Part shown: in pieces, positions 2 through 22,015 of the stretch
Layout of the letters: each line of letters begins with the position of its first letter
How positions within the stretch are numbered: position 1 is the stretch's first letter
NCBI GenBank assembly: GCA_965284605.1
Contig: OZ260101.1
Span: forward strand, 2,654,513 to 2,718,512
From: Cyclobacteriaceae bacterium
Lineage (GTDB): Bacteria > Bacteroidota > Bacteroidia > Cytophagales > Cyclobacteriaceae
Direction: 5' to 3'
Length of the DNA: 64,000 nt
Notes under the pieces: model-generated
What the model was told of the DNA's origin: nothing
Database searches by the model: none
Seen by the model: the letters and a program-made list of their open reading frames with translations, nothing else
Made by a program: the position numbers and the translations under genes

Positions 2-1666
2 AAAAGTTTGAAGGGACATTATCTAATGATTAAAGAACGTTACCGCCTAGCGGAAGCCATCCTAAAAGAAGCTATAACATCAGCTAAGGATTTAGGAGAT
101 CAAATGATAATTTTTAATAGTTATCAACTTTTATCTAGCGTGTATAATCGTCAGAGGAAATTCGATTTAAGCATCGAAAATGCGACAGAGGCCTTGAAGT
201 ATTCCAAAGAAACTTTGCTATTAGTTCCTGTTTATGAACTACTCATTGAATCTTACATCGGAAAGGGAATGACAAAAGAGGCGTTGGAGCAGTTTAATTT
301 GTTAAAAGACCTTAAGGAAAGTGATGCAAAAAAGAAGACAGCACTGTTGCTTGCCGAATACGAGGCAATGCAAGAATTGGAAGCTCAAAAACTGATTAAC
401 GAAAGCTTAGCACAAGAACAGTTGGCCAAGGCTAAATTGATAAAGCGTCAGCAAATTATCATCATTATAGTTTGTGTAAGTGTTCTAATCATTGCCTTGA
501 TCCTGACGCGCCTTAGGGCGCTTCACAAGCGTAACTTGAACTTGTTAAAGGTCAATCAAAAGGAGCGCGAAGAACTCCAAAGTACAAACCTTGAATTGGC
601 AGAGTTGGTGTCTGATCTTGAAGTCACTAAGACTGAAAACCAAGTGTTGTTAGATGCTATTTCGCAAAAGGTCAATAGGATATTTAATGGCATTAAGGGT
701 ATCAGAAGCTTTATTCCAGAGCTAGGTAAACTTAACAATGAGCAGTCAAAATACTTTAATCGTATGACTGATTTGGTGGAAGAAGAAGAAGCGTCATTGA
801 ATTCAATCATTGCTTTGAATTCTGTTTTGGGAGATCATAAGATAGAAATTAGCAGGGTGTCACTGCCTGCTGTCATCAAGTCTGTTAAGGATAAAGCACA
901 AAACATTTTGCATCTCAATCAGGCGATTTTGGAAGTTGATATCAAAGAGAGTCTAGTGTTTCTGGCCGATCGTGAGCTCATTGAAATGACCATTGCGTCA
1001 CTATTGCAACATAGCTTAAGTCAAGACCTAAAAGACAAGAAACTTAAGCTTTCGGTAAGCGCAAACGATGGTCTTCAGATGGTCTTTGAATTTGAAGGAG
1101 GCTCTGTATCATCAGAAGTGATCGATGGCTGGTTGTCAAAGACCAATACAGGTCACAAAGGCTATGTATCTAAGGTGGTTCAATTGAAAGACCTTATGGA
1201 TGGAGACCTTCAGTACTTAACGATGGGCGACACGCATAAGATCACTTTAAACCTTAATCTTATTGAGATTAAGACTTCAGAGAGTAAAGTGGGTGAGGTA
1301 GATGAGTTAGAAATTGATAGTGTCTACGATAAAGTAATGAACTACTTGGTAAAAGAAAAAGGGCTGAGCAATTCAGATTTAACTTTAGTGAGTATATCAG
1401 AAGCCATAGCTATTTCTACTAGGCGTATCTCGTTCGTCATCAATACCCGAGAGCGAACCAACTTTAGTAAGTTTTTATCGCGTTTGCGGGTTGAAAAGGT
1501 CAAAGAGATCCTCGATGGGGGAGTACATACTCACTTGAATATAGCTGGCATTGGTTATGAGGCAGGTTTTAACTCTAAATCCACATTCTTCTCTTCTTTC
1601 AAAGAGTTTGTGGGCTGCACACCTAAAGAGTACATGACTGGTAGTGACCAAAGAGTATCAGCTTGA
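2..1666 (+). CDS. TPR / single-TM / degenerate histidine-kinase-like / AraC-type HTH regulator, paralog 1 (5' part outside window)
   Basis: The frame is open to the window edge (the track start at 8 is an in-frame TTG). The product aligns residue for residue with roughly aa 388-939 of the 2275..5094 product. It has a hydrophobic helix IIIIIVCVSVLIIALIL and a C-terminal AraC-type HTH (NIAGIGYEAGFNSKSTFFSSFKEFVGCTPKEY). Confidence 0.85.
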   Translation, partial: KSLKGHYLMIKERYRLAEAILKEAITSAKDLGDQMIIFNSYQLLSSVYNRQRKFDLSIENATEALKYSKETLLLVPVYELLIESYIGKGMTKEALEQFNLLKDLKESDAKKKTALLLAEYEAMQELEAQKLINESLAQEQLAKAKLIKRQQIIIIIVCVSVLIIALILTRLRALHKRNLNLLKVNQKEREELQSTNLELAELVSDLEVTKTENQVLLDAISQKVNRIFNGIKGIRSFIPELGKLNNEQSKYFNRMTDLVEEEEASLNSIIALNSVLGDHKIEISRVSLPAVIKSVKDKAQNILHLNQAILEVDIKESLVFLADRELIEMTIASLLQHSLSQDLKDKKLKLSVSANDGLQMVFEFEGGSVSSEVIDGWLSKTNTGHKGYVSKVVQLKDLMDGDLQYLTMGDTHKITLNLNLIEIKTSESKVGEVDELEIDSVYDKVMNYLVKEKGLSNSDLTLVSISEAIAISTRRISFVINTRERTNFSKFLSRLRVEKVKEILDGGVHTHLNIAGIGYEAGFNSKSTFFSSFKEFVGCTPKEYMTGSDQRVSA

Positions 1667-2274
1667 GCAAAAACAGGTACTAGCTGTGTTGGACTGGGTG
1701 TTGTTACTCTTAATTCCTCAGGATGAGCTTAAAAGGATGGCACTTTTTTTAACAACTGGAAAAATCAACGGGTACAAGTAGCTTTTTCATAATTACCTCC
1801 TTTTATGTCTATTGATGATATATGAAGCTACCTCATCTCAAAACCCAAAAGCTTGATTGCCGTCAGATATGCACATGATGATGTTTTGGCTAAAATCTTA
1901 AACTGATCAGGTTGAGTATTCTGTAATCAGTTAAATACTCTCTTTGAAGTAGGTGATTAAAAGTGTTTAGAAACCAATCTGCCCGTTTAAATCTCTTAAG
2001 TAGATTGGCTATAATGCAAATTTCTACATTGGATCTGCACTATTTATTATATTTGAATAATGGCTGAATTTAAAAAAAATCAGTCATTTTAAGGAAACGC
2101 AAGGGTTAAACTAGATTCATTCTTCTGTAGGGGTGTGGAAGTGATTCGTCCGAATACTTCGCCTTAATAAGGCCTGGCTGGTCAGAATAGAAGATTTTCA
2201 TCGATGGTATTTAAAATACCATGATGTCCTTCGTTTTATTTGTTATTGATTTTTAACCGTCAGTTCGGATCGAC

Positions 2275-5094
2275 ATGAAGAGACCGTTACTCTTATTACT
2301 GCATCTATTATTCTGCTTGCAATTAATCGGGCAAGACCTGCCTAAGACAGAGTTAGACCTATTTACGGTGACTCTGAATTTTCAAGAGAAGGAAACTATT
2401 CGGCTAATTAAGAAAAATCTTGAAAGCACTAAGGATGGAAGTCCCGAACAAGCACACATGTTTCGACAATTGGGTATTCTCTATGAATCAATTAATCTAA
2501 CCGACTCAGCAACTTATTATCAAGGTAAGACGGATGCTTTTTGGGAAGCGTTCGAAATGCAAAGTGGAGCTGAGGAATACTTTGGCCAATACTTATTAGA
2601 AAAGGGAAAAACGTATAAAAGGGCCAAAGGGATAAGCTATTTAGATAGTGCATTACTCTACTTAAGCAACAAGGAAGACCGAATGCATGCGGAGGTATAT
2701 CGGTTAATCAGAACGTCAATCTTTGAAGAAGAGCCCCTTTATGTAGAGAGGTTAAATGGATTATTAGAAAGGTCAGACCTAACCGATGATTTACGAGGAA
2801 ATGTACTTCTACATGCCGGAATGGGTCTCATGACAACCAATTATTTAGACAGTGCCGTAATTAGTCTGAAACAGATGGAAGGACTTCGGTTAAACAAGTT
2901 CTTCGCCTTTTACCGACAGTTCTATCTGTCATACATTGACTTTTTGCAAGGTAATAAACCAGAAGCTAAGCGAGGGGTCGGCATGCTGGAAGAGCTCGTA
3001 GCAGAAAGTGGATATCACCCAAAAATTGCAACGCCATATCATTTCATCATCACGGAAATTTTGTTAGAAGAAAACCGTTACGATTCGGCTATTTATCATC
3101 AAATCAGAGCAATAGAGATTTCAGAGCAAACTCAAATGATTCCAGAAAATGTAGCCACGCTCTATGCCGATCTGTCGGATACATACTTGATGGTGGGTGA
3201 TTTGGAGAACGCAGAAAATTTCACCAGAAAAGCTAAAGACTTATTACCAGCTACTGCTCTTATTGTTAATGTCGAATTGAATAACTCACTCCTAAAGGTT
3301 CTATTAAATAAATATCCGCTAGAGAATATTGAAGCACGAAAACCACTCATTAAAGAAATTGAGGAATTAATTGCAGCACAAGCACAGCTAGTCTTAAAAA
3401 CAAAATCAACCAGCGAATTGATAAGCTTTAATAACTTGAAGGGACATTATCTGATGCTTACAGAGCGTTATCGCTTAGCGGAAGCCATCTTAAAAGAAGC
3501 TTTAACGTCAGCTAAGGATTTAGGAGATCAAACGATAATTTTTAATAGTTATCAACTTTTATCCAGTGTGTATAATCGTCAGGGGAAATTCGATTTAAGC
3601 ATCGAAAATGCGACAGAGGCTCTGAAGTACTCTAACGAAACACCTCTAATGGTTCCAGTCTATGAACTACTCATTGAATCTTACATTGGTAAGGGAATGG
3701 CTGAAGAAGCCATGGAGCAATTCGAAGCCATACGCAGACTTAAAGAGGATGAAGCCAAGGCTAAAACAGATCTACTATTAGCTGAGTTTGAGGTGAAACG
3801 AGAACTCGAGACTCAAAAACTGTTGAATGAGAGCTTGGAAAGTGAGCAGTTGGTCAAAGCACAGTTAATCGAGCGTCAGCAAATGATCATCATCATCGTC
3901 TGCATAAGTATTATTGTTATTGCGGTGATACTCTTTCGCTTAAGAGCGGTCCATAAGCGTAATTTGAATCTCTTAGAGGTCAATCAAAAGGAGCGCGAAG
4001 AACTCCAAAGTACAAACCTTGAATTGGCAGAGTTGGTGTCTGATCTTGAAGTCACTAAGACTGAAAACCAAGTGTTGTTAGATGCTATTTCGCAAAAGGT
4101 CAATAGGATATTTAATGGCATTAAGGGTATCAGAAGCTTTATTCCAGAGCTAGGTAAACTTAACAATGAGCAGTCAAAATACTTTAATCGTATGACTGAT
4201 TTGGTGGAAGAAGAAGAAGCGTCATTGAATTCAATTATTGCTTTAAATTCTGTTTTGGGAGATCATAAGATAGAAATTAGCAGGGTGTCATTGCCTGCTG
4301 TCATCAAGTCTGTTAAGGATAAAGCACAAAACATTTTGCATCTCAATCAGGCGGTTTTGGAAGTTGATATCAAAGAGAGTCTAGTGTTTCTGGCCGATCG
4401 TGAGCTCATTGAAATGACCATTGCATCACTATTGCAACATAGCTTAAGTCAAGACCTAAAAGACAAGAAACTAAAGCTTTCGGTAAACTCGAACGATGGT
4501 CTTCAGATGGTCTTTGAATTTGAAGGAGGCTCGGTATCATCAGAAGTGATCGATGGCTGGTTGTCAAAGACCAATACAGGTCACAAAGGCTATGTATCTA
4601 AGGTGGTTCAATTGAAAGACCTTATGGATGGAGACCTTCAGTACTTAACGATGGGCGACACGCATAAGATCACTTTAAACCTTAATCTTATTGAGATTAA
4701 GACTTCAGAGAGTAAAGTGGGTGAGGTAGATGAGTTAGAAATTGATAGTGTCTACGATAAAGTAATGAACTACTTGGTAAAAGAAAAAGGGCTGAGCAAT
4801 TCAGATTTAACTTTAGTGAGTATATCAGAAGCCATAGCTATTTCTACTAGGCGTATCTCGTTCGTCATCAATACCCGAGAGCGAACCAACTTTAGTAAGT
4901 TTTTATCGCGTTTGCGGGTTGAAAAGGTCAAAGAGATTCTCGATGGCGGGGTACACACTCACTTGAATATAGCAGGCATTGGTTATGAGGCGGGCTTCAA
5001 TTCTAAGTCTACATTCTTCTCTTCTTTCAAAGAGTTTGTAGGCTGCACGCCAAAGGAATACATGACTGAAGGTAGAGATAAAATTTCAGCATAA
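2275..5094 (+). CDS. TPR / single-TM / degenerate histidine-kinase-like / AraC-type HTH regulator, paralog 2
   Basis: 939-aa ORF with a signal-like N-terminus MKRPLLLLLHLLFCLQLIG and a long TPR-like helical region. One TM helix (MIIIIVCISIIVIAVILF) and a coiled coil follow. The next block aligns by eye to HisKA/HATPase_c, but the H-box His is replaced (LLDAISQKVNRIFNGIKG) and the N/G boxes are degenerate. The C-terminus is an AraC HTH. Confidence 0.85.
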   Translation: MKRPLLLLLHLLFCLQLIGQDLPKTELDLFTVTLNFQEKETIRLIKKNLESTKDGSPEQAHMFRQLGILYESINLTDSATYYQGKTDAFWEAFEMQSGAEEYFGQYLLEKGKTYKRAKGISYLDSALLYLSNKEDRMHAEVYRLIRTSIFEEEPLYVERLNGLLERSDLTDDLRGNVLLHAGMGLMTTNYLDSAVISLKQMEGLRLNKFFAFYRQFYLSYIDFLQGNKPEAKRGVGMLEELVAESGYHPKIATPYHFIITEILLEENRYDSAIYHQIRAIEISEQTQMIPENVATLYADLSDTYLMVGDLENAENFTRKAKDLLPATALIVNVELNNSLLKVLLNKYPLENIEARKPLIKEIEELIAAQAQLVLKTKSTSELISFNNLKGHYLMLTERYRLAEAILKEALTSAKDLGDQTIIFNSYQLLSSVYNRQGKFDLSIENATEALKYSNETPLMVPVYELLIESYIGKGMAEEAMEQFEAIRRLKEDEAKAKTDLLLAEFEVKRELETQKLLNESLESEQLVKAQLIERQQMIIIIVCISIIVIAVILFRLRAVHKRNLNLLEVNQKEREELQSTNLELAELVSDLEVTKTENQVLLDAISQKVNRIFNGIKGIRSFIPELGKLNNEQSKYFNRMTDLVEEEEASLNSIIALNSVLGDHKIEISRVSLPAVIKSVKDKAQNILHLNQAVLEVDIKESLVFLADRELIEMTIASLLQHSLSQDLKDKKLKLSVNSNDGLQMVFEFEGGSVSSEVIDGWLSKTNTGHKGYVSKVVQLKDLMDGDLQYLTMGDTHKITLNLNLIEIKTSESKVGEVDELEIDSVYDKVMNYLVKEKGLSNSDLTLVSISEAIAISTRRISFVINTRERTNFSKFLSRLRVEKVKEILDGGVHTHLNIAGIGYEAGFNSKSTFFSSFKEFVGCTPKEYMTEGRDKISA

Positions 5095-5333
5095 TAATAA
5101 ATCGTATGCCTGCTTATCTTTGGATGAGTCACCAATAATATCTAATTTTCTGTCGTACAGTACAAATTATTTGTAGTTTGAACTGTGCTAAAAGAGCTTT
5201 TTAAAGGGGTATTCTGTCAAACATTGAAGATACAAATCTCATGATAACCTGGCTGGTTAGATTAAATGCTTTATGATCGAAGGAATTTGATTTTTTGAAG
5301 TATGGTTTAAATCCATAATGTTTTGAGACTGAT

Positions 5334-8168
5334 ATGAAAAGGCTACTGATTCTGATTTTTATTTCTTTCAACCTGTTCTCGATAGCGGCACAAGACCTAC
5401 CAGAGAGCATTTATGAGTTGAATGTCGCTAAATTTAATGACAGCCTTGACGCACTCTTACGAAACATTGAGGAAGACCTAAAGTCAGTTAAGGACGGCAG
5501 CCTTTTAAAGGCATATAGAAGCCTTCAAAAGAGTTATCTCTACAGGGATTTAGGTAATCAAGATTCATCACAGTACTTTTTTGATCAGGCTGAGGCGTAT
5601 TGGAGTACACAAAAAATAGATGAAAGCAATTCAGATTACTTTGGTCAATTCTTATTATTCAGAACACTGTCCCCATATTCTGCTGATTTAGGAGCAATCG
5701 CTTATCTCGATAGTGCAACTTCTTACCTTACCAATGCTAAAGATAAGGCATACCTTGAGACTTTAAAGTTTAGAAAAGTTTCTGCCTACAACGAAAGGGA
5801 TGAATATGCCAAGCAACTCAATGATTTTCTATCTGATCCGAAGCTTTCTACTGCCATGCGAGCAGAAGTTTTGGAGTGGCATACTTTCAATTTACTCAAT
5901 ATGGATGAGCAGGACAGCGCGATGCGGGTGTTGGAAGAATTAGAGCCCATTGTAACCTCTAGTACCATGTTGATGGCTGTTGGCTATCGCAAGTTCCTGA
6001 TCCATTTTAGAAAAGAGGATTTGTCAGCTGCCAGGGCCCAGTATTACGAGATTCAGCGTTTAATGAAGCTAAATCGAATTCCATTACAGTCTAATGCAGG
6101 AACACAGTTTATTAGTGCCGCTTCAGCACTTTTTGTCGAAACAGGTCAGTATGATTCCGCCATCTATTATACAAAGGAAAATATTGAGTTTGCCAGAACG
6201 CGCTCTAAGCGAAATACTATGGCCATTAAGTACGGTGTGCTGGCAGACCTAAGCCGAAAAATGAATCGTTTTGATGAGGCGATAGACTACTTTCAGCAAA
6301 GTATAGCGCTGTGTGATGAGAGTAATTACCATAATAAAGTTAAAGGACGATTGAATTATCTACCCTCACTCTTTGAGGCCTATGAAGGAACACTTGATGC
6401 TAGCAGGAAGGAGTATCTGCTAAGCGAAATGAAAGAAGTTGTGGATGCACTAGACGTAGATCAATACACCTATTTTTCTCCTGCTGACCTTTCGCGATAC
6501 AATGTTGAAAAAGCGAAGTACTTTATTCTGATTGATAAGAATCAAGTCGCAGAACCTTTGCTTAAAGATGTGCTGACTTCTGCCTTAAATGAAGACAGAA
6601 TTACGCAAAAATTTTATGCGCACTATTACTTAGCGCAGTTGTATCTCGCTGAGGGAAAGATAGACAATGCCATAGAAAATGCTACAGAGGCTTTGAGCTA
6701 TGAACAAATAAATTATCACGACCTGCTCAAGGTTCATGAATTGTTGATTAAGAGTTATGCAGGCAAAGGAATGGTTGAAAAAGTGGAAGAACTGTTTCTA
6801 ACCTACAAGAATATTCAGTCTGAAAGTATGGAGAGTAAAACGTCACTCTTACTTTCTGAAACTGAGGCACAACAAACCCTTTTGAATCAAGTAAAATTGA
6901 ATGAGTTGTTGGCGAATGAAAAGGAACTAGATGCTTTACTTATCACGCGACTCAGAATTATTGTGGGCATTGCTCTAGCGAGTGCTCTAGTCATTGCTTT
7001 CTTCATGATTCGTACTAGGGTACTGAACAAGCAGAATGTGAATTTATTGCAAGAACTTGTGTCGGAACGAGAAGAGCTGCAAGACACTAATTTAGAATTG
7101 GCAGATGTAGTGTCTGAATTAAAATCAGATCAAGAAAAGAATAAGGAGCTCTTCGATAATTTTTCTTCTCGCACCAATAGAATGTTAAGCATTGTAAAAG
7201 GATTGACAAGCTTTATTCCCGAATTAGGTAAACTTAACAGTGAGCAGTCAAAGTACTTTAACCGTATGACTGACCTGGTGAAAGAAGAAGAAGCCTCATT
7301 GAATGCACTGATTGCCTTAAACTCTGTTTTGGGAGATCATAAGATAGAAATCAGCAGAGTATCGTTAGCCGATACCATTAAATCTGTCGGGGATAAAGCA
7401 CAAAATATTTTGCACCTTAATCAGGCTAGTTTAGAGGTTGACATAGAAGAGAGCCTAGTGTTTCTGGCCGATCGTGAGCTCATTGAAATGACCATTGCAT
7501 CACTTTTACAACATAGCCTGAGTCAAGACCTGAAAGACAAAAGGCTTAAGCTTTCGGTAAGCGCAAACGATGGTCTTCAGATGGTCTTTGAATTTGAAGG
7601 AGGCTCGGTATCATCAGAAGTGATCGATGGCTGGTTGTCAAAGACCAATACAAGTCACAAGGGTTATGTATCTAAGGTGGTTCAGTTGAAAGACCTTATG
7701 GATGGAGAACTTCAATATTTTACTATTGGGGACTTACATAAGATTACCTTAAACCTCAACCTCATTGAGGTAAAACCAGCCGAAAACAAAGTTGGCGAAG
7801 TAGATGAGTTAGAAATTGATGGCGTCTATGACAAGGTCATGGGTTACTTAGTAAAAGAAAATGGCTTGTCACATACCGATTTAACTTTAGTATCACTTTC
7901 GGAAGCACTGTCAATTACCACTAGGCGTATCTCGTTTGTCATCAATACCCGTGAACGCACCAATTTTAGTAAGTTTTTAGCGCGCCTGCGGGTTGAAAAG
8001 GTCAAAGAGATCCTCGATGGCGGGGTACACACTCACCTGAATATAGCTGGCATTGGTTATGAGGCAGGCTTCAATTCTAAGTCTACATTCTTCTCTTCTT
8101 TCAAAGAGTTTGTAGGCTGCACGCCAAAGGAATATATGACCGAAAGTAGTGGGCAGCAGTCTGCATAA
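5334..8168 (+). CDS. TPR / single-TM / degenerate histidine-kinase-like / AraC-type HTH regulator, paralog 3
   Basis: 944-aa ORF with the same architecture: signal-like MKRLLILIFISFNLFSIAAQ and TM helix IIVGIALASALVIAFFMI. The H-box position reads FDNFSSRTNRMLSIVKG. The last ~310 aa are very similar to paralogs 1/2, while the N-terminal sensor half is divergent. Confidence 0.85.
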   Translation: MKRLLILIFISFNLFSIAAQDLPESIYELNVAKFNDSLDALLRNIEEDLKSVKDGSLLKAYRSLQKSYLYRDLGNQDSSQYFFDQAEAYWSTQKIDESNSDYFGQFLLFRTLSPYSADLGAIAYLDSATSYLTNAKDKAYLETLKFRKVSAYNERDEYAKQLNDFLSDPKLSTAMRAEVLEWHTFNLLNMDEQDSAMRVLEELEPIVTSSTMLMAVGYRKFLIHFRKEDLSAARAQYYEIQRLMKLNRIPLQSNAGTQFISAASALFVETGQYDSAIYYTKENIEFARTRSKRNTMAIKYGVLADLSRKMNRFDEAIDYFQQSIALCDESNYHNKVKGRLNYLPSLFEAYEGTLDASRKEYLLSEMKEVVDALDVDQYTYFSPADLSRYNVEKAKYFILIDKNQVAEPLLKDVLTSALNEDRITQKFYAHYYLAQLYLAEGKIDNAIENATEALSYEQINYHDLLKVHELLIKSYAGKGMVEKVEELFLTYKNIQSESMESKTSLLLSETEAQQTLLNQVKLNELLANEKELDALLITRLRIIVGIALASALVIAFFMIRTRVLNKQNVNLLQELVSEREELQDTNLELADVVSELKSDQEKNKELFDNFSSRTNRMLSIVKGLTSFIPELGKLNSEQSKYFNRMTDLVKEEEASLNALIALNSVLGDHKIEISRVSLADTIKSVGDKAQNILHLNQASLEVDIEESLVFLADRELIEMTIASLLQHSLSQDLKDKRLKLSVSANDGLQMVFEFEGGSVSSEVIDGWLSKTNTSHKGYVSKVVQLKDLMDGELQYFTIGDLHKITLNLNLIEVKPAENKVGEVDELEIDGVYDKVMGYLVKENGLSHTDLTLVSLSEALSITTRRISFVINTRERTNFSKFLARLRVEKVKEILDGGVHTHLNIAGIGYEAGFNSKSTFFSSFKEFVGCTPKEYMTESSGQQSA

Positions 8169-8324
8169 ATGGGTTTATCAAAATGAATTTAGAGCAGCGT
8201 TCATAGTTACCTGTGCTGAGTACATTTTCATCAAATGCTAACAGCTTATTTAACCCATAGCTTCGGCAGATAATGGCTAAATCTTCAAAACAGAAAGGTT
8301 TTACGAGTACTAATTTCTAATGGC

Positions 8325-8359
8325 TACTTTTTTAGCACCTCTTTACTTTTTTTAGCACC
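8325..8359 (+). promoter_or_regulatory. Direct repeat TAC-T(6-7)-AGCACC x2 with ~20 bp period, upstream of the 8428 gene (candidate activator half-sites)
   Basis: tacttttttagcacc occurs at 8325-8339 and tactttttttagcacc at 8344-8359, about 70-100 bp upstream of the ATG at 8428. The function is inferred only. Confidence 0.3.
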
Positions 8360-8427
8360 GCTCACAACGAGGGGTAAATTTATTTGCATACAAATAATAG
8401 AACAGGTTGCTAAAGTAGGTGGAGTAA

Positions 8428-8982
8428 ATGGCTATGATCAATTTTAAAAGTCCAATGCTCGGGACTTGCTCAGTGACGAATTATAATAGAGAGCGGATGT
8501 TTTTGGTTACAGGTCAAATGAGCAAAGAGTTATATGGGATTTTAGAACAGGTTTTTATAGACCAAACCATCTCAAAAATCGAACGGATGAAATTCGAACT
8601 TATGAGTAAATCATCTAAACTCACTGTTTCTAATGACGATACAAAAAAGTGGTGTATGGATAAGATCAATGAATTGAATGATCTCATCGTTCAGTTTGAT
8701 CAAACACAACTCGGTAACAACCTAAATCATCTCATCAATCGTGGCTTAGATTCCTTTTGGGACGAACACTCAGACCTGAATAAATCGGATGTTTTGTTTT
8801 GTGGAGTGCTCGCCACTATGTCTAGTGATGCTGAGGCAGCGCAATTCTTACAAATTGATATGAATGACTTTTCAGAAAGAAAAGTTGAGATATCTCGACA
8901 GCTTGAATTAAAAACACCCTTTCAATTGAGAGGCTACGTTTTGGGAAGCATAAAAAGGCTATACGAAACAGAAAAGCGGTAG
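8428..8982 (+). CDS. Small protein with a degenerate LuxR/GerE-like C-terminal HTH, no receiver domain
   Basis: 184-aa ORF. Its C-terminal LNKSDVLFCGVLATMSSDAEAAQFLQIDMNDFSERKVEISRQLELK aligns by eye with the LuxR HTH pattern LTxRExEVLxLxAxGxSxKEIAxxLxISxxTVKxHxxxIxxKL. Confidence 0.55.
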   Translation: MAMINFKSPMLGTCSVTNYNRERMFLVTGQMSKELYGILEQVFIDQTISKIERMKFELMSKSSKLTVSNDDTKKWCMDKINELNDLIVQFDQTQLGNNLNHLINRGLDSFWDEHSDLNKSDVLFCGVLATMSSDAEAAQFLQIDMNDFSERKVEISRQLELKTPFQLRGYVLGSIKRLYETEKR

Positions 8983-9094: not shown

Positions 9095-12000
9095 TTGGCA
9101 AGGCAAATGTTAAAACAAATCACTCATTCTTTATTAGAACTAGTCGCAGCGTATGCAGCGAGGAGCTCAGCAACACGAAGCAAATACCTGAGTTGCTGGA
9201 TGGTGATGTTAGCATGTCTCATGCTTGGTACACAGGTACAATTAAAAGCGAACACATCTATTCCAAGTGAGGACCTACCTTTCGCACCAACAGTGACGAG
9301 CATTACCGTTTCAGGTAATCCAAATATTGCTGCTACCAATATCAGCTTTGTGGTCACGTTCAGTGAATCTGTTACTGGAGTAGACTTGTCAGATTTTGAA
9401 ATAGACAAAACCAGTCTGGTGTCCGCCACGCTAAGTTCTATTTCGGGCAGTGGGTCAGTGTATACTGTTAATCTTACAGACGTAGGTGGTTTCGGTCCTC
9501 TAAGCATAGACTTGAAAGCAAGTGGCTCAGGCATCAGTGGTGTCAGTGGGCCCATAGCTGATGGCTTTAAAGATGGTGCCTTCCATTTGGTAGGAGAAAC
9601 CTACGATATTACCCAAGCCATATACACGGGAGAAAGAGATGACTTGAACGTTGAGTCTCAAACCGAAGTGCCTTATTCCCTTGATTTTGATGATACAGGG
9701 CTAAAATTATTTGTGTTAGCTCCAATAACTAGCGGAGCAACCATTTTTGAATATGATTTGTCAGCACCCTATGATATTTCAACCGCTAGCTATGCTGGTG
9801 ATGTGGAGAGTTTCACCTATAGTGAACCCGGTCTTACCTTTGATTTTCAGTTCAATGGAGATGGAACCAAACTCTATTTTTTGGAAGGATTCAGGAGTGG
9901 ACGTATAACCACTTTCACTTTGAGCACGCCCTATGACGTGTCTACGGCAGTTGATGCAGGGAGCACAATCACTACAACCATTCCTGGTTTAAGAATGAGC
10001 CTAAGATTTAATCAATTAGGTTCAAAAATGTATGTTATTGGTACCTCGAGTGCTTTAGTTTATAGCTATAATTTATCCACAAATTTTGACGTATCGACCG
10101 CGGTAGTATCTGGAGCGCCATTTAGCCTAGTAGCAGATGGTATTAGTACTAATCTGACGTCTATTAGCTTTACTCCTGATGGTGAGAGATTCTTTGCTTC
10201 TGCGAATAGACAAACTTTAGAATATGCCTTAACTACACCCTTTGACCTATCCACGGCTAGTCTTCTTAGAAGGTCAACGATTTCAAATACAGCGGGTTCA
10301 TTTTATTTTCTTGACTTGGAGTTTAATTCGGATGGTACTAAGGTTTTTGTTTTAGAAGCTGGGTCTATCGTTGGTATCAGAACGGAAACAATGGAAGAGT
10401 ACTCTCTAGCCGAACCTGTGATTACGGGTTCGGTGATTGACCAAAATGTGAATGATAATGCCTCGATCAGCCCATTTGCTTCAATTATTGTGGCTGACCC
10501 TAACCAAGATCCTGTATCAGCACTGATCACATTAGATGATGACTCCAAAGGTACCTTGTCAGGTAATGGACTATCTGGTACAGGACCATATACTATGGCA
10601 AGTACTGATTTTGCAACACTTCAGAATCAGCTCAGGGCACTTTCATTTGTGCCGACAGCCAACCGAGTAGCTATTGGCAGTACCGAAAAAACCACCTTTA
10701 CTTTGGAGCTAAGTGACGGAGTACTTTCTGATACAGATATTTTTAGTTCTGTGATTTCAAACCCTGTGGCACCGAGTGCTACTATTAGTAGCGCTGAAGG
10801 AACTGTAACCAACGGGGCATTTACTACGACTATTACTTTTACCGAATCTGTATCTGGCTTTGAGGCTAGCGACCTTGTGATGGCGAACGGAACAGCCGGT
10901 ACGCTAAGCACAAATGATAATATTACTTACACTACTACCGTAACACCTACCCCTGGATTTAATGGTAGCCTGACCATTGACTTACCAGCCAATAGGGTAC
11001 AGGATGCAGGTGCCAGTGATAATGTAGCGGCAAGCCAATTCAGTATTCAGATTGATCAACAAAGCCCTGGGGTGGCCATTAGTACCTCTGCTGTTGCGCC
11101 CGCTACAGGCCCATTTCTGGTTACTATCACTTTTGATGAAGCGGTAACGGGCTTTAATTCATCAGATATCATTGTGGTAAATGGCGTTATTGATGGTTTT
11201 ACAACGGTAAGTACTACAGAATATACACTTAATATCACTCCATCAGCTACGGGTACAATTACTGTAAATGTTCCTGCCGATGCGGCTCAAGATGCAGCTG
11301 AAAATGGAAATACCGCAGCCACGGAGTTTACTATCGCTGCATCTCTTACCAACCCTTCAGTAATCATCGAAAGTGCTTCTAATAGTGCGATCAACGGTGC
11401 TTTTGATGTCACTTTTACTTTTTCTGAAGCAGTGACCAATTTTATCGCAGCCGATGTCACCGCCACGAATGCTACGGTAGGTGCACTGTCGACTGCCGAT
11501 GGGGGATTGACTTATACCGGAACAATTACGCCAGTAGCAAGTGGTGTCGTTGTATTAAGCGTTCCAAGTGATGTGGCTGAAAGTATAGCCACGGGTAATG
11601 GTAATTCAGTTTCTTCTCCTTTCAATAGGACATTCGATAATACAGGACCAACTGTAGGGATTTCAAGCGGTGTTGGTGCAACTAACGGACCATTTACAAC
11701 CACTTTTACCTTCTCAGAGGATGTAACGGGTTTTGGTCTAGACGATATTACACTGGGTAACGGCACTGCCTCCAATCTTGCAACGCTAAGTGCAACTACA
11801 TACACAGTAACCATTACACCCAACTCAGACTTTAATGGAGTACTTACCATAGATGTGGCTGCCGATCGAGTGAATGATTTAGCAGGTAATGGTAATACAA
11901 TATCAAGTCAAAAAACGGTAACTATTGATCAGACAAAGCCCAGCGTAAGCGTTAGTACGAACGTTGCAGGAAGTGAGACTAATCAAACTTCCTACACGGC

Positions 12001-15000
12001 TACTTTCACTTTTTCGGAAGATGTCACAGGTTTTGACCTAAGCGATATTATCGTTACGAATGGTGTAAAAAGTAATTTTGTTCAAGTAAGTGCTAGCGTA
12101 TATACGGCAACCATCAGTCCGACAGTTCAAGGACCTGTTGTTGTGAATGTTCCTGCCGACAGAGCACAGGATACGTCTGGAAATAATAACACAGCATCGA
12201 ATAATTCGACCCTGATTTATGATTTCACTCAGCCCTTGGTCAATATCAGTGGTTCTGCTTTGGAAAACGGTCCATTCACGGCTACTTTTACTTTTACAGA
12301 GGTTGTCACTGGCTTTGCCGCAGGCGATATACAAATTACTAATGGAACGGTCAGTAATTTGACCTCTGCTGATGGTATTACTTACACGGCTCTCATTACG
12401 CCAGCGGCTGATGGTGCCTTGACCTTATCCGTAACAGGTAGCACCGTCTTGGATAATGCTGGTAATAGTAACCCAGCATCTGATACTTTCACCACTTCAA
12501 TCGACTCGTCTGTTCCTACTGTTTCAGTTTCGGGTCCTGCTGGACCGGTCAATGGTGATTTTACAACCACATTTACCTTTAGTGAAGAGGTCAATGGGTT
12601 TGTCAATACTGATGTAAGCTTGGTCAATGCTACGATGGGTGCGCTGAGCACATCAGATAATATAACGTACACCGCTACAGTCACGCCAACATCAGATGGC
12701 AACGTTCAAATTGATGTGCCAAGTGGTGCGGTATCTGATAATGCGGGTAACAATAATTCGGCTTCAAATAGCTACACTGTTGTTAGTGATTTAACAAGGC
12801 CAACGGTAACAATTACTACACTTGGCTCTGCCACTGCCACAAGCTTTAGACCCATCAATGTAAGTGTTACTTTCTCAGAAGACGTTACTGGTTTTGATGC
12901 TTCCGATTTAAACCTTTCGGGAGGTACCATCGCGTCATTTACAGCGAATAGTCCTAGTGCCTATACCATACGAGTTACTCCTGATAATCCATCTGCTGGA
13001 AATATTTTTGTCAATGTTGCTGAAAATGTTGCGCAAGACCTGGCCAGTAATGGCAACACCGCAGCTACTGAGCTTGAATTTACAGTAGATCAGGTCAGCC
13101 CTGTGTTAACGATTGACACAGGCTTGCCTAGTGGTACTACCAATGCTGCCTATACTGCGACTTTTACATTTTCTGAACCTGTGACGGGATTTGAATTGAG
13201 TGATCTGGAGATTATCAACGGAACCCTCTCTGATTTTGTACAAACGGATGCCAGTAATTATTCCGTTTTGGTTACTCCGACAAGTGATGGTACGGTTACG
13301 CTCAACGTTGCTGCTCGAGCAGGAATAGATGAAGCAAGGCTTGGAAATGATGCGGTGAGTTCTTCGGTTACTTTCGATGGTTCACAGCCTACTGTGTCGG
13401 TTACGACAGATGTGGCCACTGGAAGAACCAACAGTCCATTCACAGCTACGATTACATTCTCTGAAGATGTCACAGGTTTTGCCTTTGATGATATCGAAGT
13501 AACTAATGGAAGTGCCAGTGATTTTACTGTGACTACCACAGACAGGGTATTTACGGTACTTATTACGCCTGCCGCTGATGGAGACGTTATCATTCGAGTG
13601 CCGGCTGAAGCAGCAGCCGATGGGGTAGGTAATTTGAATACTTTGGGTGAAACTACTATAATCGCAGACACGGTTTCACCAGAGGTAATCATTACCTCTA
13701 CTATAAGTAATGGGGTAACAATAGACCCTTTTCTTGTTGTCATTAATTTCAATGATAAAGTGAATGATTTCGATATTAATGACATTACTGTCAGCAATGG
13801 TATCGTCAGCAATTTCATTACGCTGCTTCCTAGGTTAACCTTTCAAGTCTTAATTACACCAACAGTAGGTGGCGATGTCACGGTGGATGTGCTCGCCAAT
13901 GTGGTTCAGGATTTGGCGGGTAATCCAAACTTGGCTTCTAATACTTTAAGTATTAATTACGATTTAATACGCCCTACAGTAGTTGTTACAAGTGAGAGGA
14001 GCTCAGTTAACGGTCCATTTACAGCTACCTTTACTTTCGATGAAGACGTAGTCAATTTTGATATTAATGATATTGGACTTACCAACGGATCGGCCTCTGA
14101 CTTTGCCGTAGTTAGCCCAAGCGTATATACAGCTAGGATCACACCTTTATCAGCATCGCAGGTCCGTGTGAGTGTACCATCCAATGCAGCTGAAGACCTT
14201 GTAGGAAATAAAAGTCAGGCGAGTTTTATACTCAATGTTAATATTGATTCAACGGCCCCGACTGTCACGGTTTCTGGACCGGGAAATGATGTTCGAAGTG
14301 CTTTTACGGCTACGATAACGTTTTCTGAAGATGTTACTGGTTTTGAGTTATCGGATATATCCGCAAGTAATGCATCACTCAGTAATTTTTCGCAAGTCAA
14401 CGGTCGAACTTACAATGTGACAGTTACACCAACGCTGGAAGGTTTAGTAACCTTACAAATACCAGCTGAAGCCGCAATTGACGTAGCAACTAATCAGAGT
14501 ACAGAATCCAATCTTTTGAGCATCAATTATGATGCTACACGCCCTAGCGTTGTCGTTTCGAGTGCTGCCGACCGTGTCAATGGTCCTTTTACTGCCACTT
14601 TCACCTTTGATGAAGATGTCCTTAATTTCGATGTTAATGATATTGGTCTGACCAATGGTGCCGCATCCGATTTTATTGTGGTTAGCCCGAGTGTCTATAC
14701 AGCTACCATCACTCCTCAATCTGAGTCGATTGTCCGTGTGAGTGTGCCATCAAATACTGCTAATGATGCAGCAGGCAATGTAAATCAAGCGAGTTCGATA
14801 TTGAATTTAGCGGCTGATTTTACTCGCCCGACTTCACAACTTAGCCAACCGGCAACTCATGTGAACACTGCTTTTACGACCACGATTACTTTCTCAGAGG
14901 CGATGACAAACTTCGACTTAGGGGATTTGACTATCACCAATGGTACGGCAAGCAATTTGGTTGCTGTTAATAGTAGCAGCTTTACTGCCACAATAACTCC

Positions 15001-18000
15001 TGCCGCAGATGGTTTGGTCACTGTTGGTTTGGCTGAGAATGTAGCCAACGACCTAGCGGGTAATGGTAATATAGCTGCTCCGACTGTCTCTACAACATTT
15101 GATGGAACAAGACCTAGCCTAGCGATAATCACTAGTGCAGATCCAGCCAACGGCCCATTCACCGCCACCTTCACCTTTAGTGAAGCGGTTACGGGCTTTG
15201 AAGAAACCGATATAAATATCACCAATGGAACGATCAGCAACTTTACCGAAGTAAGCCCAGGTGTTTACACTGCAACTGTTACCCCAGCAGCAGATGGAAC
15301 AGTTACCGTTGAAGTACCAGCCGATGTAGCTCAAGATTCCGCAGATAATGGCAATGAAGCCAGCTCAAGTTCAGTAGTCTTTGACAGTGCAAGACCAAGC
15401 CTCACTATCGCTACAAGTGCAGATCCAGCCAATGGTCCATTCACCGCCACCTTTACCTTTAGCGAGGCGGTTACTGGTTTTGAAGCCTCAGATATTACGA
15501 TTACGAATGGTACTGTGGGATCATTGAGCACTTCAGACAATATCACTTATACGACAACAATCACCCCAACGACATCATTTACAGGAAGCCTGACGCTTGA
15601 CGTTTTCGAGAATTTAGCGGAAGACTCAGCGGGCAATGGTAATACCCCAGCCAGCCAGCGAACTATTGCCGTGGACCAAAGTAGACCGAGTGTGTCGGTT
15701 TCGGTTCCCTCAGGCCCTGTTAATGGTCCTTTTACAGCGACCTTCACTTTTGATGAACCAGTTACTGGTTTCGAAGAAACTGATATCAATCTGACCAACG
15801 GAACACTTAGTGACTTTACTGAAGTAAGTCCTGGTGTTTACACTGCTACCGTTACCCCAACAGCAGACGGAACAGTTACTGTTGAGGTACCAGCTGACGT
15901 AGCTCAGGATACAGCTGGCAATGGCAATGAAGCAAGCTCAAGTTCAGTAACCTTTGATAGTTCAAGGCCAAGCCTAACTATTACCACAAGTGCTGATCCA
16001 GCTAATGGTCCTTTTACAGCCACCTTTACCTTTAGCGAAGCAGTAACCGGTTTTGAAGTATCAGACATTACGATTACGAATGGTACTGTGGGAACACTCA
16101 CCACCTCAGACAATATCACTTACACGAGTACAATCACCCCAACGACATCATTTACAGGAAGCCTGACGCTTGACGTCTTCGAGAATTTAGCGGAAGACTC
16201 AGCGGGCAATGGTAATACCCCAGCCAGCCAGCGAACTATTGCAGTGGACCAAAGTAGACCGAATGTGTCGATCACTGCTCCCTCAGGCCCTGTTAATGGT
16301 CCTTTTACAGCGACCTTCACTTTTGATGAACCAGTTACTGGTTTCGAAGAAACTGATATCAATCTGACCAACGGAACGCTCAGAGACTTTACTGAAGTAA
16401 GTCCAGGTGTTTACACTGCTACCGTTACCCCAACAGCAGACGGAACAGTTACTGTTGAACTGCCAGCCGATGTAGCTCAAGATTCCGCAGGCAACGGCAA
16501 CGAAGCAAGTTCAAGTTCAGTAGTCTTTGACAGTGCAAGACCAAGCCTAGCGATAACCACTAGTGCAGATCCGGCCAACGAACCTTTTACAGCCACCTTT
16601 ACCTTTAGCGAGGTGGTTACTGGGTTTGAAGCTTCAGACATTACGATTACGAATGGTATTGTGGGAACACTCACCACCTCAGACAATATCACTTACGCGA
16701 GTACAATCACCCCAACGACATCATTTACAGGAAGCCTGACGCTTGACGTCTTCGAGGATTTAGCGGAAGACTCAGCGGGCAATGGTAATACCCCAGCCAG
16801 CCAGCGAACCATTGCAGTGGACCAAAGTAGACCGAGTGTGTCGGTTTCGGTTCCCTCAGGCCCTGTTAATGGTGCTTTTACAGCCACCTTCACCTTTAGC
16901 GAAGCAGTAACCGGTTTTGAAGCCTCAGACATTACGATTACGAATGGTACTGTGGGATTATTGAGCACTGCAGACAATATCACTTATACGACAACAATCA
17001 CCCCAACGACATCATTTACAGGAAGCCTGACGCTTGACGTTTTCGAGAATTTAGCGGAAGACTCAGCGGGCAATGGTAACACCCCAGCCAGCCAGCGAAT
17101 CATTGCAGTGGACCAAAGTAGACCGGGTATTACGGTTTCGGTTCCCTCAGGCCCTGCGAATGGTCCTTTTACAGCGACCTTCACTTTTGATGAACCAGTT
17201 ACTGGTTTCGAAGAAACTGATATCAATCTGACCAACGGAACACTTAGTGACTTTACTGAAGTAAGTCCAGGTGTTTACACTGCTACAGTCACACCAACAG
17301 CAGATGGCACTGTTACTGTTGAAGTACCAGCTGACGTAGCTCAAGACTCAGCAGGCAATGGCAATGAAGCCAGCTCTACTTCTATCAACTTTGATAGCTC
17401 GGCACCAAGCCTTGTGATCACCACTAGCGCAGATCCAGCCAATGGACCTTTTACAGCCACCTTCACCTTTAGTGAAGCGGTTACTGGTTTTGAAGTATCA
17501 GATATTAATTTGACCAACGGAACACTCAGTAACTTTACCGAAGTAAGTCCAGGCGTTTATACTGCAACTGTTACCCCAACGGCAGACGGCACTGTTACTG
17601 TTGAAGTACCAGCCGATGTAGCCCAAGACTCAGCAGGCAATGGCAATGAAGCCAGCTCTACTTCTATCAACTTTGATAGCTCGGCACCAAGCCTTGTGAT
17701 CACCACTAGCGCAGATCCAGCCAATGGACCTTTTACAGCCACCTTCACCTTTAGTGAAGCGGTTACTGGTTTTGAAGTATCAGATATTAATTTGACCAAC
17801 GGAACACTCAGTAACTTTACCGGAGTAAGTCCAGGCGTTTATACTGCAACTGTTACCCCAACGGCAGACGGCACTGTTACTGTTGAAGTACCAGCCGATG
17901 TAGCCCAAGACTCAGCAGGCAATGGCAATGAAGCCAGCTCTACTTCTATCAACTTTGATAGCTCGGCACCAAGCCTTGTGATCACCACTAGCGCAGATCC

Positions 18001-21000
18001 AGCCAATGGACCTTTTACAGCCACCTTCACCTTTAGTGAAGCGGTTACTGGTTTTGAAGTATCAGATATTAATTTGACCAACGGAACACTCAGTAACTTT
18101 ACCGAAGTAAGTCCAGGTGTTTACACTGCTACAGTCACACCAACAGCAGACGGCACTGTTACCGTTGAAGTACCAGCCGATGTAGCTCAAGATTCCGCAG
18201 GCAACGGCAACGAAGCAAGTTCAAGTTCAGTAGTCTTTGACAGTGCAAGACCTAGCCTCACCATCGCTACAAGTGCCGATCCAGCCAATGGACCTTTTAC
18301 CGCCACCTTTACCTTTAGCGAAGCGGTCACCGGTTTTGAAGCCTCAGACATCAACCTCACCAACGGAACGCTGAGTGACTTTACTGAAGTAAGTCCTGGT
18401 GTTTATACTGCTACGGTCACTCCAACAGCAGACGGAACAGTTACTGTTGAACTGCCAGCCGATGTAGTCCAAGATTCCGCAGGCAATGGCAATGAAGCCA
18501 GCTCAAGTTCAGTAGTCTTTGACAGTGCAAGACCGAGTCTGGCGATAACCAGTAGTGCAGATCCAGCCAACGGCCCTTTTACAGCCACCTTCACCTTTAG
18601 TGAAGCGGTCACCGGTTTTGAAGCCTCAGACATTAACCTTACCAACGGAACGCTGAGTGACTTCACTGAAGTAAGTCCTGGTGTTTATACTGCTACGGTC
18701 ACTCCAACAGCAGACGGCACTGTTAGTGTTGAAGTACCAGCCGATGTAGCTCAAGATTCAGCAGGTAATGGCAATGAAGCCAGCTCAACTACCTCGACAA
18801 CCTTTGATAGTGCAAGACCTAGCCTCACCATCGCTACAAGTGCAGATCCAGCCAACGGTCCATTCACGGCCACCTTCACTTTCAGTGAAGTAGTAACGGG
18901 CTTTGAAGCCTCAGACATTACCATTACGAATGGTACTGTGGGATCATTGAGCACTGCAGACAATATCACTTATACGACAACAATCACCCCAACGACATCA
19001 TTTACAGGAAGCCTGACGCTTGACGTTTTCGAGAATTTAGCGGAAGACTCAGCGGGCAATGGTAACACCCCAGCCAGCCAGCGAACTATTGCCGTGGACC
19101 AAAGTAGACCGAGTGTGTCGGTTTCGGTTCTCTCAGGCCCTGCGAATGGTCCTTTTACAGCTACCTTCACCTTTAGTGAAGCGGTTACAGGCTTTGAAGC
19201 CTCAGATATTAATTTGATCAACGGAACACTTAGCAATTTCACTGAAGTAAGCCCGGGCGTTTACACTGCAACTGTTACCCCAGCAGCAGATGGAACAGTT
19301 ACTGTTGAAGTACCAGCCGATGTAGCTCAAGATTCCGCAGGCAATGGCAATGAAGTAAGTTCAAGTTCAGTACTCTTTGACAGTGCAAGACCGAGTCTGG
19401 CGATAACCAGTAGTGCAGATCCAGCCAACGGTCCATTCACAGCCACCTTCACCTTTAGTGAAGCGGTTACAGGCTTTGAAGCCTCAGACATTACCATTAC
19501 GAATGGTACTGTGGGATCATTGAGCACTGCAGACAATATCACTTATACGAGCACAATCACCCCAACGACATCATTTACAGGAAGCCTGACGCTTGATGTT
19601 TTCGAGAATTTAGCGGAAGACTCAGCGGGCAATGGTAATACCCCAGCCAGCCAGCGAACTATTGCCGTGGACCAAAGTAGACCGAGTGTGTCGGTTTCGG
19701 TTCCCTCAGGCCCTGCGAATGGTCCTTTCACAGTGACCTTCACTTTCGATGAACCAGTTATAGGCTTTGAAGCCTCAGATATTAATTTGACCAACGGAAC
19801 ACTTAGCAACTTCACTGAAGTAAGCCCAGGTGTTTACACTGCAACTGTTACCCCAGCAGCAGATGGCACTGTTAGCGTTGAAGTACCAGCCGATGTAGCT
19901 CAAGACTCAGCAGGTAATGGCAATGAAGCAAGCTCAAGTTCAGTAACCTTTGATAGTGCAAGACCTAGCCTCACCATCGCTACAAGTGCAGATCCAGCCA
20001 ACGGTCCATTCACAGCCACCTTCACCTTTAGTGAAGCGGTTACAGGCTTTGAAGCCTCAGACATTACCATTACGAATGGTACTGTGGGATCATTGAGCAC
20101 TTCAGACAATATCACTTATACGACAACAATCACCCCAACGACATCATTTACAGGAAGCCTGACGCTTGACGTTTTCGAGAATTTAGCGGAAGACTCAGCG
20201 GGCAATGGTAATACCCCAGCCAGCCAGCGAACTATTGCAGTGGATCAAAGTAGACCGAGTGTGTCGGTTTCGGTTCCCTCAGGCCCTGCGAATGGTCCTT
20301 TTACAGCCACCTTCACTTTTAGTGAAGCGGTTACAGGCTTTGAAGTCTCAGATATAACTGTGACTAATGGAGTGGCCAATAACCTGATCGAAGTAAGCCC
20401 AGGTGTTTACACCGCTACGATTACCCCAACAACATCATTTACAGGAAACTTGACCCTAAACATTGCTGCAGACGTAGCGATAGACAGAGCAGGTAATGGT
20501 AATACCCCAGCCAGCCAGCTAATTATTACCATAGACCAATCGCAATCCAATGTTTTAATTACGGGTCCAGAAGGCCCTTTAAATGAGCCTTTTACAGTCA
20601 CATTTACATTCAGTAAAAATGTGACAGGTTTTGAAGTTAATAACATTTCTATTATTAATGGAAGAATAAGTGGCTTTTTAAAAATTGAGTCAGGCGTTTT
20701 TACGGCTCTGGTTACGCCAATAGCTGATGGCGAAGTGACTATTCAAGTCCCAGCAAATGTTGCAGAAGACTCATTAGGCAATGGTAACCTCATATCTAAT
20801 GCGTTCATTGTTTTAGCTGATTTAATTAACCCAGTGCTGGTAGTTCAAGATGTGCCAACAGTTGTTAACTCACTGAATTCGTTCACCGTGACTTATCTGG
20901 CAGACGAGAGTGTAAAAGATTTTGACATATCTGATTTGGAGGCCGTTAACGCTACTCTTTCAGAATTTGAAATTATCAATGATAGAACATTTCAGGTCAC

Positions 21001-22006: not shown

Positions 22007-22015
22007 TATATAAGT

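Follow-up and report, generated by a model that had tools for sequence, protein, structure and literature searches.

Hybrid two-component systems (HTCS) combine, in one protein, a sensor and an active kinase with a CheY-like receiver and an AraC domain; their sensors are of the beta-propeller/Y_Y_Y or periplasmic binding protein (PBP) type, and their operators are direct repeats (PMC3878776). SusR and BguR have a periplasmic sensor, one transmembrane (TM) helix, and a cytoplasmic DNA-binding domain, and ATP-independent signaling has been proposed for them (PMC3878776; bioRxiv 10.64898/2026.01.10.698779; PMC10269533). BguR, recently described in marine Bacteroidota, leads from an HTCS-like sensor through a plain alpha-helical linker into a helix-turn-helix (HTH) of the GerE type and has no HisKA, HATPase_c, or receiver (REC) domain (bioRxiv 10.64898/2026.01.10.698779). 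Transmembrane transcription regulators, "hybrid" ones with two-component domains included, have been surveyed by their Pfam domains (PMC10269533), and pseudokinases of the DivL type repurpose the kinase module (PMC4211667). Here we analyze three consecutive genes, p1 to p3, at the start of a 64,000-nucleotide stretch of a Cyclobacteriaceae genome (contig OZ260101.1; "the window" is this whole stretch). Between a tetratricopeptide repeat (TPR) sensor and a DNA-binding domain of the AraC type, their products carry a histidine-kinase core that has lost its catalytic residues. We read them, with a probability of about 0.6, as phosphorylation-independent, membrane-anchored one-component regulators that use this dead core, composed of dimerization and histidine phosphotransfer (DHp) and catalytic and ATP-binding (CA) parts, as a transmitter.

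Domain architecture of the regulators

An initial annotation, made from the sequence letters, had given the three same-strand genes a shared architecture of signal peptide, TPR-like repeats, one TM helix, coiled coil, kinase-like block, and AraC-type HTH. This architecture is real, because both the Pfam domains and the single internal TM helix were found where they had been placed (Table 1). TPR repeats and HTH_18 exceeded the gathering score in each of the three proteins. The p2 sensor matched TPR_12 (54.3 bits, cut-off 30.1), TPR_8 and, weakly, TPR_MalT, and HTH_18 scored 48.6 bits in p2 and 48.6 to 49.4 bits across the regulators (cut-off 33.6). The C-terminal part also matched HTH_AraC in Pfam and, partially, the C termini of FeaR, MelR, and AraC in NCBIfam. 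These Pfam matches, together with seven helices in the structure model described below, identify a two-HTH, seven-helix DNA-binding domain of the AraC/XylS type. Hydropathy scanning gave a signal-like N-terminal segment and exactly one internal TM helix, which in p2 was the sole internal segment over the Kyte-Doolittle threshold. The products of p1 to p3 would thus be membrane-anchored AraC-family regulators whose TPR side is predicted to face outside. In length and match coordinates, p2 corresponds to P0002 of the representative protein library that we searched.

The absence of a receiver domain also stood: Response_reg had no Pfam match in p1 to p3 even at E <= 1, and the CA-like and AraC domains are joined by a linker of just about 10 residues. 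HisKA and HATPase_c were likewise unmatched at this threshold. An NCBIfam scan of the regulators gave no kinase or REC match, a result that does not show the fold to be absent.

A histidine-kinase core between membrane and DNA-binding domain

By profile and fold comparison, the block of about 230 residues is a HisKA-type histidine-kinase core (DHp plus CA). We searched a 3-sequence HMMER profile of the block exhaustively against 1.84 billion (1.84e9) representative proteins. The family is tiny at this scale, with eight clusters at E <= 1e-77: one fragment, the two proteins from the window, and five relatives that are full length (942 to 966 residues). The next matches, outside the family, were 34 proteins with E values of 1e-6 to 1e-3; 20 of these were checked for domains, and 19 had HisKA plus HATPase_c and one had HATPase_c plus HTH_18. 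Rescored with a 9-sequence family hidden Markov model (HMM), those kinases had E values down to 4e-11 for the whole library, and their bias scores were low. When the family was aligned by hhalign to an alignment of the 34 kinase cores, the match had a probability of 99.8% (E 2e-28) over 246 columns and ran from the coiled coil to the last CA beta strands, covering both DHp and CA. When homologs were sought by word index, both the block and the family profile recovered one fragment only (P0001).

Profile searches of the PDB gave kinases as well. A profile of nine dead-kinase-AraC proteins, with no active kinase inside, matched DivL (4q20, 9.7e-8), HK853 (4jas, 3.9e-7), CpxA, ThkA, PhoR, and WalK, and the first non-kinase came at E 0.31. 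The 8-sequence family profile matched DivL alone, at E 0.08, and significance came on adding two distant relatives. A single-sequence PDB search with the block gave no match.

An AlphaFold run on three sequences from the family only (run 1) was poor, with a pLDDT of 50. Run 2, with an alignment of 7 family members and 24 kinases, reached a pLDDT of 82.3; its fold comprises one long helix, a hairpin of helices, an alpha/beta domain, and an AraC domain with seven helices (model helices 2-64 and 69-99 form the coil/DHp part and 258-376 the AraC domain). Because real kinases are in its alignment, this model does not count as evidence independent of the sequence comparisons. Foldseek compared the model with the PDB and returned 300 matches at E <= 1e-3, and the best 50 of these 300 were kinase cores or kinase-related domains. 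The kinase-related domain of plant phytochrome A ranked top (E 1e-9), RetS (6dk7) and DivL had target-normalized TM scores of 0.68 and 0.66, and HK853 was also matched.

Profiles and Foldseek thus agree on a DHp plus CA (Bergerat) fold homologous to HisKA/HATPase_c. The kinase homology had originally been proposed from four motif alignments made by eye, all of which HMMER and hhalign recovered in identical register. The proposal is borne out by the exhaustive search, hhalign, the PDB profile search, and AlphaFold/Foldseek, and the structure prediction and alignment to bona fide kinases that had been recommended as checks did find a kinase fold.

Loss of the catalytic residues

The register of the H-box is anchored gap-free by an IKGL motif just after it. 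In this register, the replacement of the phospho-accepting His, by Gln in p1 and p2 and by Ser in p3, was confirmed codon by codon, as the initial annotation had it. Relatives have V, D, I, or N in this column. At the following position (H+1), which is Glu or Asp in kinases, the window paralogs have Lys or Arg and five of the eight lineages have His. His is absent throughout the H-box helix of the window paralogs, where the residues at H and H+1 are Q-K or S-R.

The ATP-binding motifs fare similarly. The column of the N-box Asn holds a His that is invariant across the family, and that of the G1 Asp holds Phe in the window paralogs and most relatives and Thr in P0008. The G2 box falls in an 8-residue deletion in window paralogs and relatives alike. 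The N-box Asn and the G1 and G2 glycines had been called unrecognizable; this is right for the N-box Asn and the G2 box, but the window paralogs retain the first glycine of G1 (EFEGGS). Alignment to kinases therefore bore out the loss of ATP-binding motifs and turned up neither an intact catalytic His nor an intact set of these motifs. With the residues for ATP binding and autophosphorylation gone, the kinase core of p1 to p3 is predicted to be catalytically dead.

Selective constraint on the dead core

The dead core is under purifying selection and is maintained rather than decaying. Pairs of orthologues taken from two related assemblies gave Ka/Ks values of 0.07 to 0.09 for the CA-like domain, the same as for the sensor. 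Many positions are invariant across the family, for example FIPExGKxNxEQ in the DHp loop and LxFLAD and KDLMDGxLxY...HKI...LNL in the CA-like domain. The length of the block is equal across all lineages, and 48 to 53 residues separate the TM helix from the H-box column in all members.

Homogenized output halves

Between p2 and p3, the sensors share 28% identity and the CA-like plus AraC parts 90%. Between lineages, the corresponding values are 22 to 32% for most pairs of sensors, 40 to 55% for the CA-like part, and 62 to 71% for the AraC part. The switch between the two regimes is sharp and lies in the DHp loop at about p2 residue 632, near window position 4168; past it, p2 and p3 have 86 to 94% protein identity and 74 to 93% nucleotide identity. 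The output half has a Ks of about 0.6, and in the sensor Ks has reached saturation. From about residue 200 of p1 (about nucleotides 600 in p1 and 3030 in p2), p1 and p2 have 96 to 100% nucleotide identity over most of the output half, and the visible part of the p1 sensor is 64 to 90% identical to p2. Near-identical outputs behind divergent sensors, as first described for all three genes, are therefore found in p2 versus p3. Tandem paralogs in the L004/L005 lineage are not homogenized (about 50% identity in the CA-like part and about 72% in the AraC part).

This pattern points to recent gene conversion or recombination that would have homogenized the output halves from the DHp loop to the C terminus. 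If so, the different sensors should act on the same DNA sites. The pattern fits several sensors feeding one DNA specificity, and the paralogs would then share targets. Homogenized outputs with divergent sensors would make a clear case of concerted evolution shaping signal convergence.

Relatives and origin of the family

Named members of the family come from Roseivirga-like Cytophagales, and one locus (L002) matched a Roseivirga metagenome-assembled genome in a genome collection. Other sources are GCA_001747105.1, GCA_017592825.1, marine metagenomes, and assemblies from the Sequence Read Archive (SRA).

Two distant relatives carry the dead core and AraC domain behind other inputs. P0031 has a 2TM (short membrane anchor)-coil-dead core-AraC layout, with the N-box Asn kept and G2 absent. 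P0043 (E 1.3e-37, 94% coverage) has a REC-coil-dead core-AraC layout, with the REC domain at the N terminus; its gene directly follows that of a TPR kinase, and a gene for a REC-HisKA-HATPase_c-REC-AraC protein lies nearby. From these two proteins, the dead-kinase-AraC unit looks like a portable output cassette that can sit behind TPR-TM, short-membrane-anchor, or REC inputs. The surrounding signaling cluster (L010:402-11750, Logan ERR13858318) consists of the REC-HisKA-HATPase_c-REC-AraC protein, a 1,017-residue TPR kinase, P0043, and a second TPR kinase. A cargo gene with Por_Secre_tail and an open reading frame (ORF) of >1979 residues lie near this cluster, which is possibly the same circuit in two-component form.

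The regulators had been proposed to be stripped-down HTCS, which is not established by our comparisons. Among active proteins, those most closely related to the core are kinases of the TPR-TM-HisKA-HATPase_c and REC-HisKA-HATPase_c layouts, such as P0023 and P0012; P0023 has the TPR-TM-coiled-coil layout of p1 to p3 but an intact kinase core. The closest active kinases share with the family a juxtamembrane motif and the DHp-loop motif IKGLxxLIPxxGxLNxEQxxY. For the AraC domain, the closest matches were AraC proteins of Bacteroidota that are not HTCS, and some of these have TPR. Because neither set of relatives is HTCS, fusion of a TPR kinase with an AraC domain appears at least as likely as loss of REC from an HTCS, which is possible but not favored.

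We considered HTCS-like descent by way of the REC-HisKA-HATPase_c-REC-AraC neighbor of P0043. The stretch that it shares with P0043 is limited to the N-terminal REC and coil (47% identity, ending at the H-box), and it matches the family profile weakly and in the AraC part only. A simple REC deletion therefore finds no support here.

Genomic neighborhood and candidate targets

Downstream of p3 lies a small cytoplasmic ORF, whose probable start is taken from its homologs (Table 1). Of the six other locus types, five (L001/L007-9, L002, L003, L004, and L005) have such a homolog directly downstream of the regulator gene or genes; these homologs encode 146 to 172 residues and have the invariant motifs GILEQxFIxQ and LxCG. 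In L006 the small ORF is not present. The ORF had no Pfam or PDB match, so no REC, histidine phosphotransfer (HPt), or kinase domain is recognizable in it. An hhalign comparison with six LuxR-type sequences placed residues 79-134 in the expected register at a probability of 0.9%. The initial annotation had called this ORF an HTH gene, a label that is unsupported because neither Pfam nor the PDB gave a match and the alignment to LuxR-type sequences fell short of significance.

Upstream of the small ORF is a tandem direct repeat, about 13 nt before a TAnnTTTG-like box (8376-8386). Its geometry makes it, speculatively, a candidate AraC-type operator. Upstream of the paralogs and the adhesin, matches to the repeat were not above chance (8 against 5.4 expected), and it was absent from related loci, so we dropped it as a shared operator. 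Promoter and terminator consensus scans found nothing above the shuffled expectation, and Rfam had no match in window positions 1-9200. The p1-p2 intergenic region (1667-2274) is unusually long at 608 bp and has no ORF of >=100 residues and no Rfam match. The one feature that intergenic alignment brought out was a hairpin resembling a terminator, which follows the regulator gene in the L001 to L003 loci. There, an inverted repeat (GAGTAC...GTACTC) right after the regulator stop is probably a terminator that parts the regulator from the small ORF.

Next in the window come a giant adhesin gene, with 36 Big_12 repeats and a CHU_C signal for the type IX secretion system (T9SS), and a PorP/SprF-OmpA gene. 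A type-B T9SS cargo protein with its own PorP/SprF-like partner is a usual pairing. The G+C content climbs to 47 to 49% in the adhesin repeat region (15 to 20 kb).

A survey of related loci, as had been suggested, found T9SS cargo beside the regulators in two of four independent contexts, but the Big_12 adhesin itself is not conserved there. The L004/L005/L006 lineage has a different giant T9SS cargo gene (PA14 plus Por_Secre_tail, >1800 residues), convergent and one or two genes off; these genes also carry DUF8202, and in L005 and L006 an SprB/CHU_C lectin gene lies four genes upstream. In Roseivirga-type loci, ORFs of 361 to 443 residues that could not be annotated take the place of the giant cargo gene. 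The link between regulator and T9SS cargo is suggestive only, and the small ORF and the adhesin region (9095..23650), put forward as targets in the initial annotation, are no more than candidates. No kinase or REC gene is conserved adjoining the family loci. The rest of the window is ordinary housekeeping, with era/der GTPases, carB, and 2-oxoglutarate dehydrogenase genes.

Table 1. Features of the regulator locus and the rest of the window, with corresponding features of related loci (prefixed by locus)
Feature	Location	Strand	Details	Basis
p1	2..1666	+	3' part, 554 aa; N terminus lost at window edge; end of TPR sensor, TM, coiled coil, predicted dead kinase core, AraC HTH	
p1 phospho-His position	codon 665-667	+	Gln	
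p2	2275..5094	+	Complete gene, 939 aa	
p2 signal peptide, predicted	2275..2334	+	MKRPLLLLLHLLFCLQLIGQ	Reading of sequence by eye
p2 periplasmic TPR sensor region, predicted	2335..3885	+	aa 21-537	Pfam
p2 single TM helix	3886..3942	+	aa 538-556, followed by positively charged RLRAVHKR	Kyte-Doolittle
p2 juxtamembrane coiled coil and DHp-like helical hairpin	3943..4257	+	aa 557-661	AlphaFold model, HMMER, hhalign, PDB registers
p2 phospho-His position	codon 4093-4095	+	Q607, in degenerate H-box LLDAISQKVNRIF	
p2 CA-like (Bergerat-fold) domain	4279..4698	+	aa 669-808; without ATP-binding motifs	
p2 N-box Asn position	codon 4438-4440	+	H722	
p2 AraC/XylS-type DNA-binding domain	4732..5088	+	aa 820-938, seven helices	Pfam, AlphaFold model
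p3	5334..8168	+	Complete gene, 944 aa	
p3 TM helix	6954-7025	+	aa 541-564	
p3 coiled coil and DHp	7026-7331	+		
p3 phospho-His position	codon 7167-7169	+	S612	
p3 CA-like domain	7353-7772	+		
p3 AraC domain	7806-8162	+		
Tandem direct repeat	8324..8363	+	20-bp spacing (CTACTTTTTTAGCACCTCT / TTACTTTTTTTAGCACCGCT); upstream of small ORF	
Small cytoplasmic ORF	8518..8982	+	154 aa from Met 8518; longest ORF 8428..8982	Homologs
Adhesin	9095..22006	+	4,303 aa	
PorP/SprF-OmpA gene	22016..23650	+	Downstream of adhesin	
tRNA gene	24006-24078	-		
S-adenosylmethionine (SAM) riboswitch	49311-49435	-	71 bits; upstream of gene 48099..49169	
Small ORF homologs	L001:1671-2153; L002:11397-11915; L003:13208-13684; L004:6566-7006; L005:16015-16455			
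Inverted repeat after regulator stop	L001:1316-1360; L002:11132-11175; L003:12881-12925			
Giant PA14/DUF8202/Por_Secre_tail cargo genes	L004:8025-15515; L005:17479-22829; L006:13529-19003	-		

Proposed mechanism and alternative explanations

In the prevailing view, a histidine kinase transmits its signal through shifts of the helices in the DHp bundle, which are normally read out as phosphorylation. In the mechanism that we propose for p1 to p3, a ligand or partner would bind the periplasmic TPR domain, and binding would shift helices through the membrane and the coiled coil, as in real kinases. The dead unit, a DHp four-helix bundle with its CA-like domain, would be kept as a dimerization and signal-transmission module. 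Its rearrangement would reposition the two AraC domains of the dimer, and at the membrane this pair would engage or let go of DNA sites made of direct repeats, with phosphoryl transfer playing no part. Both the topology and the phosphorylation-independent allostery are predictions. That the kinase fold acts as a conformational transmitter, as suggested in the initial annotation, is a reasonable inference, backed by purifying selection and reuse of the cassette. A bolder version, which we hold only tentatively and think improbable, makes the dead DHp-CA unit a self-contained allosteric switch that gates AraC and is reused behind at least three inputs. Gene conversion would leave the dimerization and output halves interchangeable, and the paralogs could therefore heterodimerize and integrate periplasmic signals at one operator, possibly that of surface-adhesin genes.

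Several points weigh against phosphorylation-independent transmission. Pfam models alone miss the kinase domains of p1 to p3, and the confident AlphaFold model was built on an alignment with real kinases, the family-only model being the poor one. Among the best structural matches are RetS and DivL, which act through partner proteins and not by intramolecular allostery, and the conserved small downstream ORF could encode a required partner. Five of the eight lineages have a His one residue past the canonical position, and P0043 has one at the canonical position, aligned with the phospho-His of the neighboring intact kinase; some relatives might for these reasons still join phosphotransfer. Finally, the link from sensor state to DNA binding is one that we infer.

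Among the alternatives, the one that we take most seriously, while judging it unlikely, is a partner-dependent pseudokinase like DivL or RetS. Its dead DHp/CA unit would dock a response regulator, a real kinase, or the small-ORF product, and so set AraC activity with or without the TPR domain. DivL was the top sequence match in the PDB, and RetS and DivL were among the top Foldseek matches; moreover, the kinase module of DivL reads the state of a response regulator (PMC4211667). The immediate downstream position of the small ORF in most loci, and the TPR kinases that adjoin REC-fed P0043, would suit such a partner. However, conserved neighbors of the family include no gene for a kinase or REC protein, and the small ORF, in which REC, HPt, and kinase domains are not recognizable, is missing from L006. 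The rank that DivL and RetS take in a list with many ordinary kinases may simply mirror shared degeneracy. The core could instead be a decaying remnant that serves as an inert spacer and tethers AraC to the membrane, control lying elsewhere, for example in regulated proteolysis. The loss of all catalytic motifs and the blindness of Pfam to the domains would agree with decay, but the Ka/Ks of the CA-like domain, the many family-invariant residues, the constant block length, and the fixed TM-to-H-box spacing do not. Since the block is also reused in soluble P0043, where no tether is needed, we regard this explanation as very improbable.

Even less probable is residual phosphotransfer, in which the core would be phosphorylated in trans or would act as a phosphatase or phosphotransfer module through a noncanonical His. 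The His residues of the relatives noted above speak for it; the window paralogs, however, have no His in the H-box helix in a register held gap-free by IKGL, the N, G1, and G2 boxes are missing in all family members, and there is no REC acceptor. An ordinary active HTCS whose kinase is merely too divergent for Pfam is scarcely credible. The homology to kinase cores is true, but an alignment with firm anchors shows none of the phospho-His, the N-box Asn, the G1 Asp, or the G2 box, and Response_reg was unmatched at E <= 1. We therefore retain the phosphorylation-independent one-component regulator as the preferred reading.

Comparison with known systems

The TPR-TM-dead kinase-AraC layout is rare, is made of familiar signaling parts, and is apparently undescribed: the literature that we searched held no account of a dead kinase core joined straight to AraC, which is no proof of absence. 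Pfam shows only TPR and AraC in p1 to p3, and these proteins would therefore be scored as plain, non-hybrid transmembrane regulators; domain-based censuses overlook such proteins. The practical impact is limited, as the family is rare and the marine Cytophagales concerned are without genetics.

HTCS such as BT1754 and BT4663 resemble p1 to p3 in being inner-membrane polypeptides with a periplasmic sensor, a HisKA-type fold, and a C-terminal AraC domain. Unlike HTCS, p1 to p3 have a predicted dead kinase, no receiver, and a TPR sensor rather than Reg_prop/Y_Y_Y or PBP, and the sequence neighbors of their core and AraC domain are not HTCS. With SusR, BguR, and transmembrane transcription regulators in general, they share the combination of sensor, TM helix, and DNA-binding domain, in the predicted topology. 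They differ in keeping a complete, apparently dead DHp plus CA module and in their AraC output, whereas SusR has its own HTH and BguR has GerE; TPR_SusR, DUF6377, and GerE had no Pfam match in p1 to p3 at E <= 1.

The active kinases P0023, P0012, and P0016, the last two of the REC-HisKA-HATPase_c layout, lack a DNA-binding domain, and their H, N, G1, and G2 boxes are intact. DivL (4q20) and RetS (6dk7) likewise keep a HisKA-type DHp plus CA unit after autophosphorylation was lost or disused; unlike p1 to p3, they act on separate partners and bear no DNA-binding domain. Plant phytochrome and ethylene receptors also keep a degenerate kinase module as a dimerization and output unit after the sensor, but they are eukaryotic, have no fused DNA-binding domain, and show no close sequence kinship, so the likeness is one of principle only. 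If our reading is true, a fused DNA-binding domain reads the DHp scaffold directly in p1 to p3, and these proteins would be a natural minimal system for transmembrane and DHp signaling without phosphochemistry. They would add a third solution among Bacteroidota membrane regulators, beside the full phosphorelay of HTCS and the layout of SusR/BguR, which do without a kinase module.

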